Below, piece after piece: positions 58,698-64,000 of a stretch of 64,000 nucleotides of DNA. The notes below the pieces were generated by a model. The model did no database searches, was not told the DNA's origin, and saw only the letters and a program-made list of their open reading frames with translations. This DNA comes from Planctomycetaceae bacterium (GTDB lineage: Bacteria; Planctomycetota; Planctomycetia; Planctomycetales; Planctomycetaceae). The stretch covers positions 1-64,000 of the forward strand of contig JAGQQG010000018.1 in NCBI GenBank assembly GCA_020426325.1, written 5' to 3'. The position numbers and the translations under genes were made by a program. Each line of letters starts with the position of its first letter. The stretch's first letter is position 1.

Positions 58698-60197
58698 TTA
58701 CGGTAACTGCGTCACGCCCATCAGGTAGCGGTCGCATTCTCTTGCGGCTTCGCGGCCTTCGTTGATGGCCCAGACGACGAGGGACTGGCCGCGTCGGCAG
58801 TCTCCCGCGACGAAGACCCCTTCGACGTTGGTCGTGTATTTGCCGTATTCGCCTGTGTACCAACTCATGCCACCCCGGCCTTCGCGAATGTCGACCCCCA
58901 GTTGCTCGGCAGCAGGAGATTCCGGCCCCAGAAAGCCCAAGGCAAGAAACACGAGATCACAGGGCCAATGCTTCTCCGAGCCCTCAACTCGGCAGAATGG
59001 AGGGCCGTTTTCGACAGGCTTCGACCAGTCGACCTGCACTGTGGTGAGTCCGGTCACGTTTCCATCAGTGTCCCCGGTGAACTCGACCGTTTCGATTGAG
59101 AACTCTCGTGGGTCTTCGCCAAACACGGCCTTCCGTTCGGCATGTCCATAGTCAGTGCGGAAGATGCGGGGCCATTGGGGCCAAGGGTTGTTCTCTGCAC
59201 GCTCCGCAGGCGGTTGCGGGACGATCTCGAAGTTGACGAGGCTCTTGCAGCCGTGCCGCATGCTGGTTCCCAGGCAGTCGGTCCCCGTATCCCCTCCACC
59301 GATAACGATCACGTCCTTGCCGGCAGCATTGATGTAGTTGCCATCTTCGTGACGCGAGTCGAGCAGGCTCTTGGTGTTGGCCGTGAGAAACTCCATGGCA
59401 AAGTGAATGCCCTTGAATTCACGGCCGGGGATGGTCAGATCCCGAGGCCGGGTGGAGCCGGTCGCGAGAATGACCGCATCGAACTCATCCTTCAGCTCAT
59501 CCGCCGGCTTGTCCTTGCCGATCTCACAATTCGTGACGAACCTGATGCCTTCCTCTTTCATGAGATTGACACGGCGTTCGACGACGCGCTCTTTCTCCAG
59601 CTTCATGTTGGGGATGCCGTACATCAACAGTCCGCCGATCCGATCGGCACGCTCGAAGACAGTCACTTCGTGCCCTGCGGAGTTGAGCTGCGCGGCAGCA
59701 GCGAGTCCGGCCGGCCCGCTGCCGACGATGGCAACCTTTTTCCCGGTACGCTCATTCGGTGGTTCCGCAACAACCCAGCCTTCCTCGAAGCCGCGATCGA
59801 TGATGTTCCGTTCGATCGTCTTGATGGCAACCGGCGGATCATTGATCCCCAGCGTACACGAGCCTTCACACGGAGCAGGACAGACACGACCGGTGAACTC
59901 CGGAAAATTGTTCGTCTTGTGTAATCGATCGAGGGCTTCGCGCCAGTCGTCGTGATAGACGAGATCATTCCACTCGGGAATCAGGTTATGCACCGGACAG
60001 CCGGCTGCCGCCCCAGCAAGAATGTCCCCCGTGTGACAGAAGGGAATCCCGCAGTCCATACAACGCGCCCCTTGATGCTGGAGCACCTCCAGTTCAATTG
60101 GCTGAATGAACTCATCCCAGTCCTTGATGCGCTCGACCGGATCACGATCAACGGCTGTCTGACGAGGGAACTCTTTGAATCCTGTTGGCTTACCCAT
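58698..60197 (-). CDS. gltD: Glutamate synthase small (beta) subunit
   Basis: [13 protein letters not shown]-terminus, Fe-S Cys clusters ([10 protein letters not shown]; CPAPCEGSC), FAD/NADPH Rossmann motifs ([14 protein letters not shown]; [12 protein letters not shown]). Confidence 0.93.
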
Positions 60198-60237
60198 AAG
60201 TGTTGTCTGTTTCTAGTTTTTCGTAATTCGCCGAGCT

Positions 60238-60828
60238 TCAGCCTGGGTGAGGAACTTGTGCAACTTCTACTGTAAAGCGATTCATGAATCTTAGCGAATC
60301 TTCTTCGTCAAACAGCCAGCCAAGCCCGGCTACGGTGATCTCTTGATCACACTTGGTGTGCAAAGTGAAATTCGTTCTGCTTAACTCGTTTATCGTACTA
60401 GCCGCCCCACTGTGTTGGGCAACGGCCGTAATCGTTGGAAGTGCCCTTTGAACGCGACTTACAGGTGTGCCAACGTACCAGTAATCAATCTCCTCGAATC
60501 GAAGTGCACGGAACCCATAGCGAATTCCTTTCTCGTACACATCAAGTTCAGATGGTAACTTGCGTCGGAGAATCCATCGGTATCCTTGGATAATTGCGAT
60601 CAGTGATGGGATGTAAACCAGCCAAAATTGATAGTTTCGCCAGCCACCCCGAATGTCCAAAAACAAGATCACAACACCACTTATCATGAGTGCGAAAAAC
60701 AGAACTGGAATTGCGTTTGGAAGAATGAACGTAAGTAGCCTCTTTAGTCCTCGCTTCTTCTCACAACGAAATTCAAGTTCTCCCAAATACTCTTCAAACT
60801 CATGTGGATGACGACACCAACGAGACAT
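60238..60828 (-). CDS. Hypothetical membrane protein encoded in low-GC insertion
   Basis: ATG at 60828 (track start 60837 is GTG); two TM helices; local GC clearly lower than flanks. Confidence 0.45.
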   Translation of the reverse strand: MSRWCRHPHEFEEYLGELEFRCEKKRGLKRLLTFILPNAIPVLFFALMISGVVILFLDIRGGWRNYQFWLVYIPSLIAIIQGYRWILRRKLPSELDVYEKGIRYGFRALRFEEIDYWYVGTPVSRVQRALPTITAVAQHSGAASTINELSRTNFTLHTKCDQEITVAGLGWLFDEEDSLRFMNRFTVEVAQVPHPG

Positions 60829-60837
60829 GTCTAGCAC

Positions 60838-61004
60838 TGCTCCATCGTCGCCGGTCTGAGTAATCGTACGAAGCGGTAGGTGTGTTGTGACGATAGTATA
60901 TCAGACGGCTGGATGAACTCGTCCCAATCGCCGATTCGCTTGTGCGCATCACGCATGATCGCCGTCTGCCGGGGGAACTCTTTGAATCCTGTTGGTTTAC
61001 CCAT
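60838..61004 (-). pseudogene. Diverged duplicate fragment of the gltD 5' end (first ~33 codons)
   Basis: Minus-strand translation from ATG 61004: [34 protein letters not shown] vs authentic Glt[35 protein letters not shown]; DNA 60905-61006 aligns to 60100-60197; frame ends at TAG after 55 codons. Confidence 0.65.
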
Positions 61005-61015
61005 GTTAGTTTTTT

Positions 61016-61053
61016 ACAACCGCGAATACCGCGAATGGTGCGAATGGATTAGG
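61016..61053. repeat. Left inverted repeat flanking GxxExxY gene (three GCGAATNNN units)
   Basis: ACAACC-GCGAATACC-GCGAATGGT-GCGAATGGA-TTAGG; reverse complement of right repeat. Confidence 0.7.
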
Positions 61054-61069
61054 TGGATACGCCACCACT

Positions 61070-61492
61070 TCATTCGCAATTCACGCGCTGTTCACGGTTC
61101 CTCTCTACAGTTCTTGCAATTCGTTCATACTCAAGTTTCGGATGCCCTGAAAAGTTCACGAGCAGGCCGAGTTGGATTCCGGTCGCTTTGAGATAGTTGT
61201 GAAGTTGTGCCCGGTGTCGATCGTGAAACTCGTTGACGGCTTTAATCTCGACGATGATTCTCTCAAAACAGACAAAGTCCGGCTTGTAGGTTTGTTCGAG
61301 TCGATGGCTTTTGTATTCGATGACGAGTTCCTGTTGAGAGACGAATCGGATACCGCGCAATCGAAACTCAATCTCCAAGGCTTCCTGATAGACCGGTTCA
61401 ACAAATCCTGATCCAAGTTGATTATGAACCTCGAAACATGCTCCCATAATTGCATAGCTCTCATCGGGGAATAGAATCTCGGTCATCGTCAC
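61070..61492 (-). CDS. GxxExxY family protein (PD-(D/E)xK nuclease-like fold)
   Basis: 140 aa; motif GSGFVEPVYQEAL (GxxExxY) and overall match to the family pattern (ESYAIMGACFEVHNQLG...IEYKSHRLEQTYKPDFVCFERIIVEIKAV...QLHNYLKATGIQLGLLVNF). Confidence 0.85.
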   Translation of the reverse strand: MTMTEILFPDESYAIMGACFEVHNQLGSGFVEPVYQEALEIEFRLRGIRFVSQQELVIEYKSHRLEQTYKPDFVCFERIIVEIKAVNEFHDRHRAQLHNYLKATGIQLGLLVNFSGHPKLEYERIARTVERNREQRVNCE

Positions 61493-61556
61493 AACTCAGA
61501 TTCTCATGAACCGCGAGTTTCACGAATGAGGCGAATTGAAAGATTTGGCGCCACAA

Positions 61557-61589
61557 CCTATTCGCACCATTCGCACCATTCGCGGTTGT
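61557..61589. repeat. Right inverted repeat flanking GxxExxY gene
   Basis: CCTATTCGC-ACCATTCGC-ACCATTCGC-GGTTGT = reverse complement of ACAACC-GCGAATGGT-GCGAATGGT-GCGAATAGG; pairs with 61016-61053. Confidence 0.7.
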
Positions 61590-61600
61590 CAATCATTTTC

Positions 61601-64000
61601 TCACCGGCTCTCCGCCATTTCTGGTGACTCCTCGCCAGCGGCCTCGGCCATCGCTGCGGCTTTGAGTTCGTCCAGCGACTTCTTGTATTCGCGGGGCATA
61701 ACCTGGACGAACTTGGCCGACTCGACATCCCAGTCTTCGATGATGGATTTGGCAATCGCAGAGCCGGTATAGATGTGATGCTTCTCGACCAGTTCCTTCA
61801 ATTCTGCGACGTAGTCCGGATCATCGACTTTGGCGAGCGGGATGAGGTCAACAAGTTCAAGATTACAGTTCACACGAAGCTGATCGAGACTGTCGGTGTA
61901 GACGTAGGCGACTCCGCCAGACATACCTGCCGCAAAGTTTCGGCCTGTCGGGCCAAGAATCACGACCCGACCACCGGTCATGTACTCGCAGCCGTGATCG
62001 CCGACCCCTTCCACGACTGCCTTGGCACCGCTGTTCCGCACGCAGAACCGCTCTGCGGCCCGACCACGGAAGTATGCTTCCCCGGATGTGGCACCATACA
62101 GGGCCACGTTGCCAATCAGGATGTTCTCACGAGGAACAAACGTGCTTGACTCGTGCGGATGGACGATCAGTTTGCCCCCCGACAGACCTTTCCCCGCGTA
62201 GTCATTGGCGTCGCCGATGACTTCGATCGTTACGCCATTAACTGCCCATGCCGCGACCGACTGTCCGGCGGAACCACGGGTGACGATGCGGATCGTGTCC
62301 TCCGGGAGGCCTTGCGGACCCCACTTCTTGCTGACTTCGTGAGACAGAGTCGTCCCGAAGGCGCGGTCGATGTTCTGGATGTCGATTTCCAGTTTGATTT
62401 TCTCCCCCTTCTCGATCGCCTCACGGGCTTGCGGGATGAGAAATGTCTGATCGAGCGTCTGATCGAGACCATGATTCTGAGCCTGCTGACAGTAAGTGCC
62501 AGCATCGGTGTAACTGCTGATCGCACGCGTCAGGACGAGCGACAGGTCGAGGTGTCGGGCCTTCCAGTGATCGATCGAGGAGTTCCACTCCAGCAGGTCA
62601 GCACGCCCGACCATTTCGTTGATCTTGCGGAAGCCGAGCTGAGCCATGATCGTGCGCAAGTCCTCTGCAACCATGAAGAGGTAGTTGATGACATGCTCCG
62701 GTTGCCCCTTGAACTTCGCGCGAAGTTCGGGATCCTGCGTGGCGACTCCCACAGGGCAGGTGTTGAGATGGCATTTCCGCATCATGATACAACCGAGCGT
62801 GATCAGAGGTGCGGTTGCTAAGCCGAACTCCTCAGCTCCGAGCAGACACGCAATCGCCACGTCACGACCGGTGCGAATCTGACCATCGGTTTCCAGTTTT
62901 ACGCGGCTTCGAAGATCGTTCTTGACGAGCGTCTGATGCGTCTCCGCAATGCCCAGTTCCCACGGGAGGCCGGCATGCTTGATGGACGTCAGCGGGGAAG
63001 CGCCGGTTCCGCCGCCATCACCCGAGATCAGGATCTTGTCTGCGTGTCCTTTGGCAACTCCGGCTGCGATCGTGCCGACTCCGACTTCCGACACAAGCTT
63101 GACGCTGATGCCTGCTGACGGATTGGCATTCTTGAGGTCGAAGATCAGCTGTGCCAGGTCTTCGATGGAGTAGATGTCGTGATGCGGCGGTGGGCTGATG
63201 AGTCCGACGCCGGGAGTCGAGTTGCGAGTCGCGGCGATGATCTTGTCGACCTTGTGACCGGGCAATTCCCCCCCCTCGCCGGGCTTCGCTCCCTGGGCGA
63301 TCTTGATCTGCAACTCATCCGCATTCGTGAGATACCACGAGGAGACGCCGAACCGACCGCTGGCGACCTGCTTGATCGCAGAGCGGCGATTGTCCGCGAA
63401 GCGTTCGTAATTCTCGCCCCCCTCTCCCGTGTTGGACTTGCCGCCGATCTGATTCATCGCGACAGCCAGCGACTCGTGAGCTTCGGCCGAGATGGAGCCG
63501 TAACTCATGGCACCGGTGCAGAACCGCTTGACGATCTTCTCCGCCGTCTCAACTTCATCGAGCGGGACCGGTGTTGTTCCCGTCTTGAACTGCATCAAGC
63601 CGCGGAGCGTACCTTGTCGGTGATCGCTCTCATTCATCAGCTTGGCAAAGCGATCATAGGCAGACTTATCGCCCGCGCGAGCTGCCTGCTGAATCTCGGC
63701 AATCGTGAACGGGTTCCAGCCGTGTTTCTCACCGCCGTGTCGCCAGTGAACAATCCCGTCATTTTGCAGGACGGGCAAACGATGGCTTTCGTGGCGAGCG
63801 GGGAAACCCTGCTCGTGACGACGGAGATGTTCCTCAGCGAGGATCTCGAAATCGATGCCTTTAATTCGACTTGCGGTGCCAGTGAAACACTTGTCGATGA
63901 TGTCACTGGAGAGACCGAGTGCCTCAAAAATCTGCGCGCCCTTATACGAGGCGAGTGTCGAGATCCCCATCTTGCCCATGACCTTGAGCATGCCTTTACG
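61601..64000 (-). CDS. gltB: Glutamate synthase large (alpha) subunit, C-terminal ~800 aa; gene continues past window end
   Basis: FMN-binding/TIM-barrel domain and C-terminal GXGXG beta-helix domain motifs of GltB; open frame runs to the window edge. Confidence 0.92.

Follow-up and report, generated by a model that had tools for sequence, protein, structure and literature searches.

A repeat-bounded nuclease cassette and a relic of the gltD start share the gltB-gltD spacer of a Planctomycetaceae bacterium

In the 64,000-nucleotide stretch analyzed here (hereafter the window; contig JAGQQG010000018.1 of assembly GCA_020426325.1, a Planctomycetaceae bacterium), the glutamate synthase genes gltB and gltD lie 1403 nt apart, with the whole arrangement on the minus strand (Table 1). 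An earlier note on this DNA had remarked on an AT-richer segment of about 1.4 kb between the two genes, carrying a hypothetical membrane protein, a GxxExxY protein and a diverged copy of the gltD 5' end, and had read it as a sign of past insertion or duplication with a likely horizontally acquired cargo. The segment and its contents are all there, and both an insertion and a duplication of the gltD start are supported. Instead of a single insertion, however, the segment comprises two layers with separate histories: a nuclease gene between inverted repeats, which forms a cassette shared with relatives, and a foreign gene lying between a relic of the gltD start and the intact gltD. We consider it probable (roughly 60%) that the spacer was filled in two steps, an older shared cassette being joined through recombination to a lineage-specific allele with foreign genes ahead of gltD.

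Anatomy of the gltB-gltD spacer

The composition of the segment sets it apart from its surroundings. In 300-nt windows, the G+C (GC) content of 60100-61600 is 0.44-0.52, against 0.55-0.63 in the flanks, and the GC content of third codon positions (GC3) is 0.43 in the membrane protein gene (ORF199, from open reading frame, ORF) and 0.50 in the GxxExxY gene versus 0.70 in gltB and gltD.

Table 1. Features of the gltB-gltD region in the window
Feature	Coordinates	Strand	Remarks
gltB, 3' part	61601..63991	-	glutamate synthase large subunit; Pfam Glu_synthase 9e-152, GXGXG 4e-81; stop codon 61601-61603; extends beyond the window
Cassette	61013-61592	- (gene)	580 nt; nuclease gene bounded by 38-nt inverted repeats
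Outer arm, gltB side	61555..61592		sense: TTGACAACC-GCGAATGGT-GCGAATGGT-GCGAAT; period 9, 2.7 tandem copies
Inner arm, gltB side	61509..61536		can pair with 61560-61587 (28 nt, 75%); hairpin loop 23 nt, just upstream of the nuclease gene
GxxExxY / PDDEXK_3 gene	61070..61492	-	140 aa from GTG 61492; NCBI: 138 aa from ATG 61486
Inner arm, gltD side	61071-61099		local hairpin partner of 61013-61050; overlaps the last codons of the nuclease gene
Outer arm, gltD side	61013..61050		period 9; ends 8 nt ahead of the relic ATG
gltD relic	60831..61004	-	57-codon ORF; codons 1-34 (60905-61004) gltD-like, then 23 unrelated codons
ORF199	60238..60828	-	cargo gene; 196 aa from ATG 60828; 199 aa (60238-60837) from GTG 60837
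Spacer, ORF199 to gltD	60198..60237	-	40 nt; read from sequence
gltD	58698..60197	-	499 aa, intact; TIGR01317 771 bits; first 98 nt are the second copy of the direct repeat

The copy of the gltD start forms a direct repeat with the gene itself: 60100-60197 and 60907-61004 are 79% identical over 98 nt, a similarity that is significant at the DNA level (blastn E = 1e-20). The ORF that opens with the upstream copy does run into a stop codon, as had been noted, although after 57 codons rather than 55, and its resemblance to gltD ends at about codon 33-34. It covers only residues 1-34 of GltD, has no Pfam hit and does not amount to a full-length GltD (TIGR01317); the gltD downstream is complete and can be aligned to relatives over residues 1-499. 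Four residues of the relic (M17, A20, H21 and K22) depart from the consensus at positions where all relatives agree with the working copy, so that it is no longer constrained as GltD. The stop codon of the relic (TAG, 60833-60831) lies 2 nt ahead of the ATG of ORF199.

ORF199 encodes a predicted membrane protein with two helices and a C-terminal domain. It matches only itself among 5.8e9 proteins, while a HMMER search of 1.8e9 representatives found two distant homologs (E = 2.5e-6 and 6.5e-4). All three share the same layout, with an N-terminal ELExxLGxLxYRCE, two hydrophobic helices and an FRF(D/E)EID motif, and ORF199 thus belongs to a real but rare protein family. One of the homologs (P0242) is encoded on an 828-nt contig without gene context. 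The GC content of ORF199 at the three codon positions is 0.56/0.40/0.43. It has no hit in Pfam, NCBIfam or PADLOC, and its AlphaFold2 model (predicted local distance difference test score 50) is too poor for a fold search.

The rest of the spacer is taken up by the cassette, whose inverted repeats had escaped the earlier reading. It extends from 8 nt past the gltB stop codon to 8 nt ahead of the ATG of the relic, so that the 580-nt unit fills the whole space between the gltB stop and the original gltD start. The outer arms are 84% complementary over 38 nt, with a perfect 20-nt core, and on the sense strand an arm reads as tandem 9-nt units, AACC-GCGAATGGT-GCGAATGGT-GCGAAT. The local hairpin upstream of the nuclease gene is present in two of the related contigs described below (L168 and L169) as well. 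Within the 64 kb the repeat motif is confined to the cassette, where it has 7 hits, a number reached in 0 of 100 shuffles. In addition, two hexamers similar to the cassette repeat units occur in GGCGAATTACGAAAAAC (60216-60232, sense strand), 19 nt upstream of the working gltD ATG; they could be the remnant of another repeat arm.

The product of the enclosed gene is recognized by the hidden Markov models of both families, TIGR04256 (141.8 bits, cutoff 35; E = 1.1e-41) and PF13366 (141.7 bits, cutoff 22; E = 1.6e-41). It contains the motif GFVEPVY and a KPDF...VEIK stretch, and the PD-(D/E)XK catalytic residues are intact: D70, E80 and K82, together with Q94xxxY98, are invariant across 39 sequences. 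Fold searches match the protein to the PD-(D/E)XK core fold, with Cas4, lambda exonuclease and Dna2 as the closest folds. A relation to T7 endonuclease I-like resolvases, raised by weak Pfam and PDB sequence hits, received no support from the fold searches and was rejected. The insert matches no known RNA family in Rfam, and no promoter or terminator consensus.

The spacer in related genomes

We compared the locus with 80 gltD loci of GTDB species genomes, among the matches listed (877 kb in total; best match 74% identical). In these genomes the gap between gltB and gltD usually measures 50-300 nt. GxxExxY genes were detected five times in the 877 kb, in two Planctomycetota and three Verrucomicrobiota genomes, and all five are in the gltB-gltD gap, oriented like the operon. 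Where the gap is long in other genomes, it contains Uma2 genes (L004, L073), a ParE/Phd pair (L068) or unannotated ORFs; our reading of an ORF in L027 as Uma2 was rejected, as Pfam did not confirm it. The nucleases residing between gltB and gltD fall into at least five unrelated protein groups, so the spacer has been colonized repeatedly, at least five times. In the minimal mobile elements of Neisseria, too, the cargo varies while the two conserved genes around it stay the same, and the gltB-gltD spacer likewise holds GxxExxY, Uma2, ParE/Phd or VapBC-like genes or ORFans in different genomes. In contrast to those elements, which vary among strains of one naturally transformable species, the gltB-gltD pattern spans several phyla, and one of its cargo types has repeat boundaries of its own.

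The closest relatives of the cassette are on four contigs, L168 (nuclease identity 87%), L169 (77%), L170 (75%) and L171 (73%). In L168, L169 and L171 it occupies the gltB-gltD spacer, so it was inherited within the clade and not recently acquired; in L170 a cassette of this kind is found in an unrelated genomic context. The C-terminus of GltB in the window is the same as in L168 and L171. Two cassette-free gltD relatives were found in a large protein collection: L085 (gltD 86% identical), in which the spacer has two small ORFs, and L086 (80% identical), with an empty spacer of 227 nt. As with a free-standing homing endonuclease, the nuclease gene lies between two conserved genes and varies among relatives, being present in the window, L168, L169 and L171 and absent in L085 and L086. 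As for horizontal acquisition, both inserted genes are foreign in composition (GC3), and ORF199 is absent from every relative locus examined; a recent acquisition of the nuclease cassette, found in the same spacer of three relatives, is not supported. Two details of these contigs may be added. In L169 (1225-5910, a long-read contig of 1.92x coverage) gltB is called in seven pieces, probably owing to sequencing frameshifts. In L085 (1-539 and 5251-5889) there is a Uma2 gene upstream of gltB, the two small spacer ORFs have no Pfam hit, and the ATG of the first of them overlaps the gltB stop as ATGA.

The relatives also reveal which of the two gltD starts is in the ancestral place. In L169 and L171, gltB is followed by a cassette built of GCGAAT units and then directly by an intact gltD, whose ATG lies 10-15 nt past the terminal ...ATTCGCGGTTG arm. 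An alignment of the starts places the relics of the window and of L168 at this same distance of 10-15 nt past a ...ATTCGCGGTTG arm, while the working gltD starts of these two genomes have unrelated sequence upstream. Since the relics are placed like the working starts of L169 and L171, the duplicated fragment is no stray copy but the original gltD start, downstream of which lie the cargo and the 5' end that gltD has now.

L168 provides a second instance of this arrangement with different cargo. Its order is gltB, cassette, a 45-codon gltD relic, a ribbon-helix-helix (RHH) antitoxin, a PIN toxin and an intact gltD. The L168 relic is 89% identical to its own gltD over 107 nt, and the antitoxin ATG overlaps the stop codon of the relic as TGATG. 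The cargo segments show no similarity to any compared locus or to the rest of the window.

Origin of the gltD scar

The proposed history runs as follows. In a first step, attested by the sharing of the cassette with relatives, a gene-plus-repeat cassette of an apparently selfish family that rides on operons entered the gltB-gltD spacer in the ancestor of the clade; the unit is a Cas4/RecB-like PD-(D/E)XK gene between inverted arrays of 9-nt units, of a kind that seems to land repeatedly just after stop codons in co-directional gene strings. In a second step, we infer, a cassette allele was joined to a cargo allele carrying foreign genes ahead of gltD, separately in the window and L168 lineages. 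The two joints would be a homologous crossover within gltD and an illegitimate joint about 100-110 nt into gltD, and the outcome in the window would be the cassette, 34 stranded codons of the old gltD, ORF199 and the intact gltD. In a third step, the stranded start would have been retained as a short ORF, which in both genomes ends in a stop codon abutting the first of the cargo genes. Judging from this arrangement, the relic ORF probably acts as a leader that hands ribosomes over to the cargo, so that the translation start of gltD would be lent to ORF199.

In favor of the second step, cargo-type alleles without a cassette exist, namely the small ORFs of L085, the Uma2 genes of L004 and L073 and the ParE/Phd pair of L068, and one-sided homologous plus illegitimate recombination that leaves orphaned gene pieces is a documented route (PMC5361080). 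Such homology-facilitated illegitimate recombination, known from the type VI secretion system effector-immunity arrays of V. cholerae and from Rhs loci (PMC5361080), combines a conserved anchor at one end with a non-homologous joint at the other; the resident sequence that is displaced persists as an orphan beside the incoming module, and repeated events bring different cargo, all of which resembles the locus described here. The gltD orphan differs in being the 5' end of a housekeeping gene rather than a toxin tip or an immunity gene, and in staying translatable, with its end abutting the start of the cargo. As a recombination relic, the gltD scar is of an ordinary kind; what makes it notable is that it recurs with different cargo and that it seems to be reused as a leader. 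Its two occurrences, each with cargo of its own, indicate that a housekeeping operon can gain genes without loss of function, the displaced start codon being kept and apparently reused for the newcomer. The scar also offers annotators an explanation for a class of short "N-terminal fragment" ORFs and of low-GC spacers in conserved operons.

Did the duplication occur once or twice? Within codons 31-37, the relic and the working gltD of one genome have lineage-specific codons in common, reading ATY-CAG-CCR (IQP) for the window and GCW-GAG-YCR-CTA-CC for L168, and the breakpoints of homology differ as well (about nt 99-104 in the window versus about nt 111 in L168). Together, these two features of the alignments favor independent duplications in the two lineages. 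Over the initial 35 nt of gltD (60163-60197 in the window), the six clade sequences from the window, L168, L169 and L171 are identical at 33-34 of 35 positions, synonymous sites included, whereas the next 64 nt are only 72-80% identical across the clade. Gene conversion, considered at first as the reason why the two copies are almost identical over these 35 nt (Fisher p = 6e-4), was rejected in view of this clade-wide conservation.

Several points weigh against the two-step history. Both duplications could go back to a single ancestral event whose traces gene conversion and exchanges of cargo have since blurred. Over nt 36-99 the window relic and its own gltD are only 69% identical, and the relic is about equally distant from all clade members. 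The evidence from L168 is a single 2-kb contig. No gltB-ORF199-gltD or gltB-vapBC-gltD genome without the cassette was found, which leaves the parental cargo allele hypothetical, and the abutment of stop and start in two cases is suggestive but post hoc. Two ways of polarizing the duplication were tried and discarded. The GC3 of the relic (0.68), of the working 5' end (0.53) and of the rest of gltD (0.70) differ within the sampling noise of 34 codons, and gltD 5' ends are generally lower in GC3 in the relatives. In outgroup parsimony, done by eye with L085 and L086, the outgroups disagree, each tracking its own GC content.

An alternative that we consider unlikely makes the cassette nuclease the cause of the scar: a cut about 100-110 nt into gltD, followed by repair that copies from a diverged allele and then by end joining, so that cargo is captured and the gltD start duplicated. 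In its favor, the two lineages with the scar have it at almost equal distances from this cassette, and it is seen at none of the other loci among some 90 with a cassette; the enzyme retains its catalytic residues; and free-standing endonucleases cut away from their own gene (PMC2988022) and can drive local segmental duplication (PMC13096335). However, the nearest folds, those of Cas4, lambda exonuclease and Dna2, belong to end-processing enzymes and not to sequence-specific cutters, and five other cassette lineages reside in the same spacer without a gltD scar. Given the recurrent distance, it is possible that the nuclease of the cassette or its palindromes caused the break. A 5' duplication of the downstream gene as a general by-product of the cassettes was also considered, and rejected, for it is seen only in the window and L168.

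The free-standing homing endonuclease genes of T4-like phages (seg and mob; "intronless homing," PMC2988022) offer a parallel in layout. They too are stand-alone nuclease genes between two conserved genes, present or absent in close relatives, of atypical composition and accompanied by a recombination scar in a neighbor gene. The cassette differs in residing in cellular genomes rather than phages, in its nuclease family, in its flanking inverted repeats, which homing endonuclease genes are without, and in having no known cleavage site.

Two further routes seem to us less likely still. In the first, the initial 100 nt or so of gltD would have been tandemly duplicated in situ, through replication slippage beside the palindromic cassette end, for instance, and a foreign gene inserted between the copies afterward. 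Palindromes are fragile sites, and the lineage-specific codons that the relics share with their own gltD (IQP in the window; AE.LPL in L168) are what such a duplication would produce. Against it, two rare events would be needed at the same place, and this twice, in the window and in L168. Moreover, in L168 it is the relic, and not the working copy, that resembles the relatives more (54 versus 49 of 64 nt identical to L171, 51 versus 46 to L169), and a decaying in-situ copy should show the opposite.

In the second route, to which we give similarly little weight, the cargo is a RecA-dependent mobile cassette: recombination between repeats in a donor releases a non-replicating circle with the cargo and a gltD 5' segment, and a single crossover into the gltD start of the recipient regenerates the duplication. 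The first 35 nt of gltD, so well conserved in the clade, would be a suitable crossover substrate; Campbell-type integration of a 5' fragment would yield just this order of truncated copy, cargo and intact copy; and the same slot holds different cargo. However, related circles would share breakpoints, and here these are at about nt 100 in one case and nt 111 in the other; the two gltD copies are dissimilar upstream of the ATG; and no circle junction was seen. Homology of 35-100 nt at 80-90% identity is, in addition, a poor substrate for RecA. Finally, a chimeric contig that joins unrelated pieces might be suspected in a metagenome-assembled genome, but an assembly or binning artefact is effectively refuted by four contigs from four public sample/run accessions (three ENA, one Logan) that are 99.96-100% identical across the junctions, and by the relatives with the same cassette in the same spacer.

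The nuclease cassette as a widespread unit

The nuclease cassette between its repeats is more novel than the scar, which is of an ordinary kind. When metagenomes were scanned with five aligned GxxExxY proteins, 80 cassette loci were obtained, 76 of which had enough flanking sequence for a tally of inverted repeats against shuffled controls. In 56 of the 76, an inverted repeat brackets the GxxExxY gene well above the controls. With a more lenient inverted-repeat score (at least 15), and with other cassette loci included, the number of loci with flanking inverted repeats comes to 75, and the cassettes, about 90 loci overall, are nearly always flanked. The arms consist of 2-4 tandem units with a period of 9 nt in 55 loci and 10 nt in 17, and the unit cores include CACGAAA, CGCGAAT, CACGGAA, CACAGAT and CGCCAAA. 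In about 80% of cases the neighbor genes have the same orientation, and the repeat arm starts at a median of 8 nt past the upstream stop codon. There is no target-site duplication around the cassettes beyond chance (mean longest match 5.5 nt versus 5.0 nt in controls).

Gene and repeats move together, for the nearest protein relatives share a unit type even when they are in different contexts (L009/L099, L069/L165 and the window clade/L170). The gltB-gltD spacer is evidently one favored site among many, since gltD is the neighbor in just 1 of the 80 metagenome loci; other recurrent sites are the nuoK-nuoL junction and a site upstream of a permease gene. Hairpins of the cassette unit types also occur without a gene, in the gltB-gltD spacer of L074 (GCGGATT), in L095 (6329-6415; CGCGAAG) and in L108 (1433-1489; CGCGAAT). 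They may be solo derivatives or target sites. In 1.33 Mb we counted 10 periodic hairpins away from the GxxExxY gene and 14 beside it; there are none elsewhere in the window. The GxxExxY/PDDEXK_3 family itself is very large, with more than 5000 relatives of the window protein at E <= 1e-10, and is listed as of unknown function in a survey (PMC3424549). Among cultured carriers, Fuerstiella marisgermanici has a GxxExxY protein of 66% identity (P0217). A literature search of incomplete coverage found no description of a repeat architecture for GxxExxY, PDDEXK_3, PF13366 or TIGR04256, and the repeat-flanked nuclease cassette is a widespread kind of gene unit that is apparently undescribed.

Do the repeats act as DNA or as RNA? 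It is conceivable, though we doubt it, that the arms pair in the gltB-gltD transcript and loop out the nuclease ORF, and that cleavage by RNase III insulates the operon. The predicted minimum free energy structure of the 621-nt sense RNA does join the outer arms in a duplex of more than 30 bp (z = -4.6 versus shuffles), and the cassettes are co-directional with their neighbors and fill intercistronic spacers. However, mismatches in the arms show no excess of G-U on the sense strand (80 G-U versus 98 A-C); the conserved 6-7-nt cores of the units are 93% complementary versus 77% for the spacers between them, a pattern more like repeated binding sites than like a stem; and Rfam has no match. On this pattern of conservation we lean towards repeated protein-binding sites in DNA. 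A formal parallel on the RNA side is offered by the ORF-bearing intervening sequences of 23S rRNA, which are excised at a stem formed by their ends. They too have a small ORF enclosed by complementary ends in a host transcript, and a long duplex is predicted for the cassette. The cassette differs in its host, an mRNA operon, in its protein family and in showing no clear wobble-tolerant covariation.

On the DNA side, the layout of the cassette is closest to that of REPtrons, in which tnpA-REP (RAYT) genes are flanked by inverted repetitive extragenic palindromes (REP) (PMC8266576, PMC3733652). Common to both are a small nuclease gene between inverted copies of a short palindrome-forming repeat, a position of the repeats just past stop codons in intercistronic DNA, the lack of a target-site duplication, and gene-less solo hairpins of the same unit type (L074, L095, L108). 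Yet the cassette is not a REPtron. Its enzyme is of the PD-(D/E)XK type and not an HUH/Y1 transposase; its arms are tandem arrays of 9-nt units, in contrast to a single hairpin tagged with GTAG/CGTC; its gene is multi-copy and polyphyletic across sites, whereas that of REPtrons is single-copy; and the 64-kb window contains no swarm of solo repeats. Nor is the cassette a DDE-type insertion sequence or a miniature inverted-repeat transposable element: it has the inverted repeats of these elements, without a target-site duplication or a DDE transposase.

It is tempting to hypothesize, and we do so only tentatively, that GxxExxY cassettes are autonomous mini mobile elements, in which a Cas4/RecB-like PD-(D/E)XK nuclease of about 125 amino acids would recognize its own 9-nt arrays in a REPtron-like layout and insert after stop codons in operons. 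A break about 100 nt into gltD would then have seeded the capture of cargo, which would be translated from the stranded start codon. For the large and uncharacterized GxxExxY family, these findings suggest a testable substrate, its own repeats, and a testable life style, that of a selfish passenger of operon spacers.

A number of individual loci deserve mention. At the recurrent site in the nuo operon, the cassette (L093 1052-1429, L094 4001-4378, L119 4001-4375, L121 2073-2438) stands right after a gene ending in ...DI(K/S)SLKF*, read by eye as nuoK, and before the next operon gene. The unit types differ among these loci (CGCGAAT, CGCCAAAT, CGCGAAA), and L121 has a second copy at 1311-1676. 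At the other recurrent site (L097, L106, L110, L118), the cassette is immediately upstream of a gene that starts with MNF(I/V)LKMAWRD..., a permease-like N-terminus. Tandem arrays of hairpin repeats, up to several copies, are found beside GxxExxY genes in L126 (1319-1850), L140 (2769-4581), L141 (4387-4857) and L143 (4369-4670). In L009 (4985-5349), the GxxExxY gene in the gltB-gltD spacer is split over two frames, by a frameshift or as a pseudogene, with its repeats intact (41 nt, 85%). L011 has a truncated copy of the cassette 5' part, including the ORF start (92-320 versus 377-616; 77% identical), just upstream of the full cassette. Lastly, the cassette of L088 (about 240-720) has a 10-nt direct repeat, GGTGCGATGA, on either side, by which the ATGA overlap between the stop and start codons of the adjacent genes is duplicated. 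On a small scale the case recalls the doubled gltD start, although it is an outlier in a set of 74 loci.

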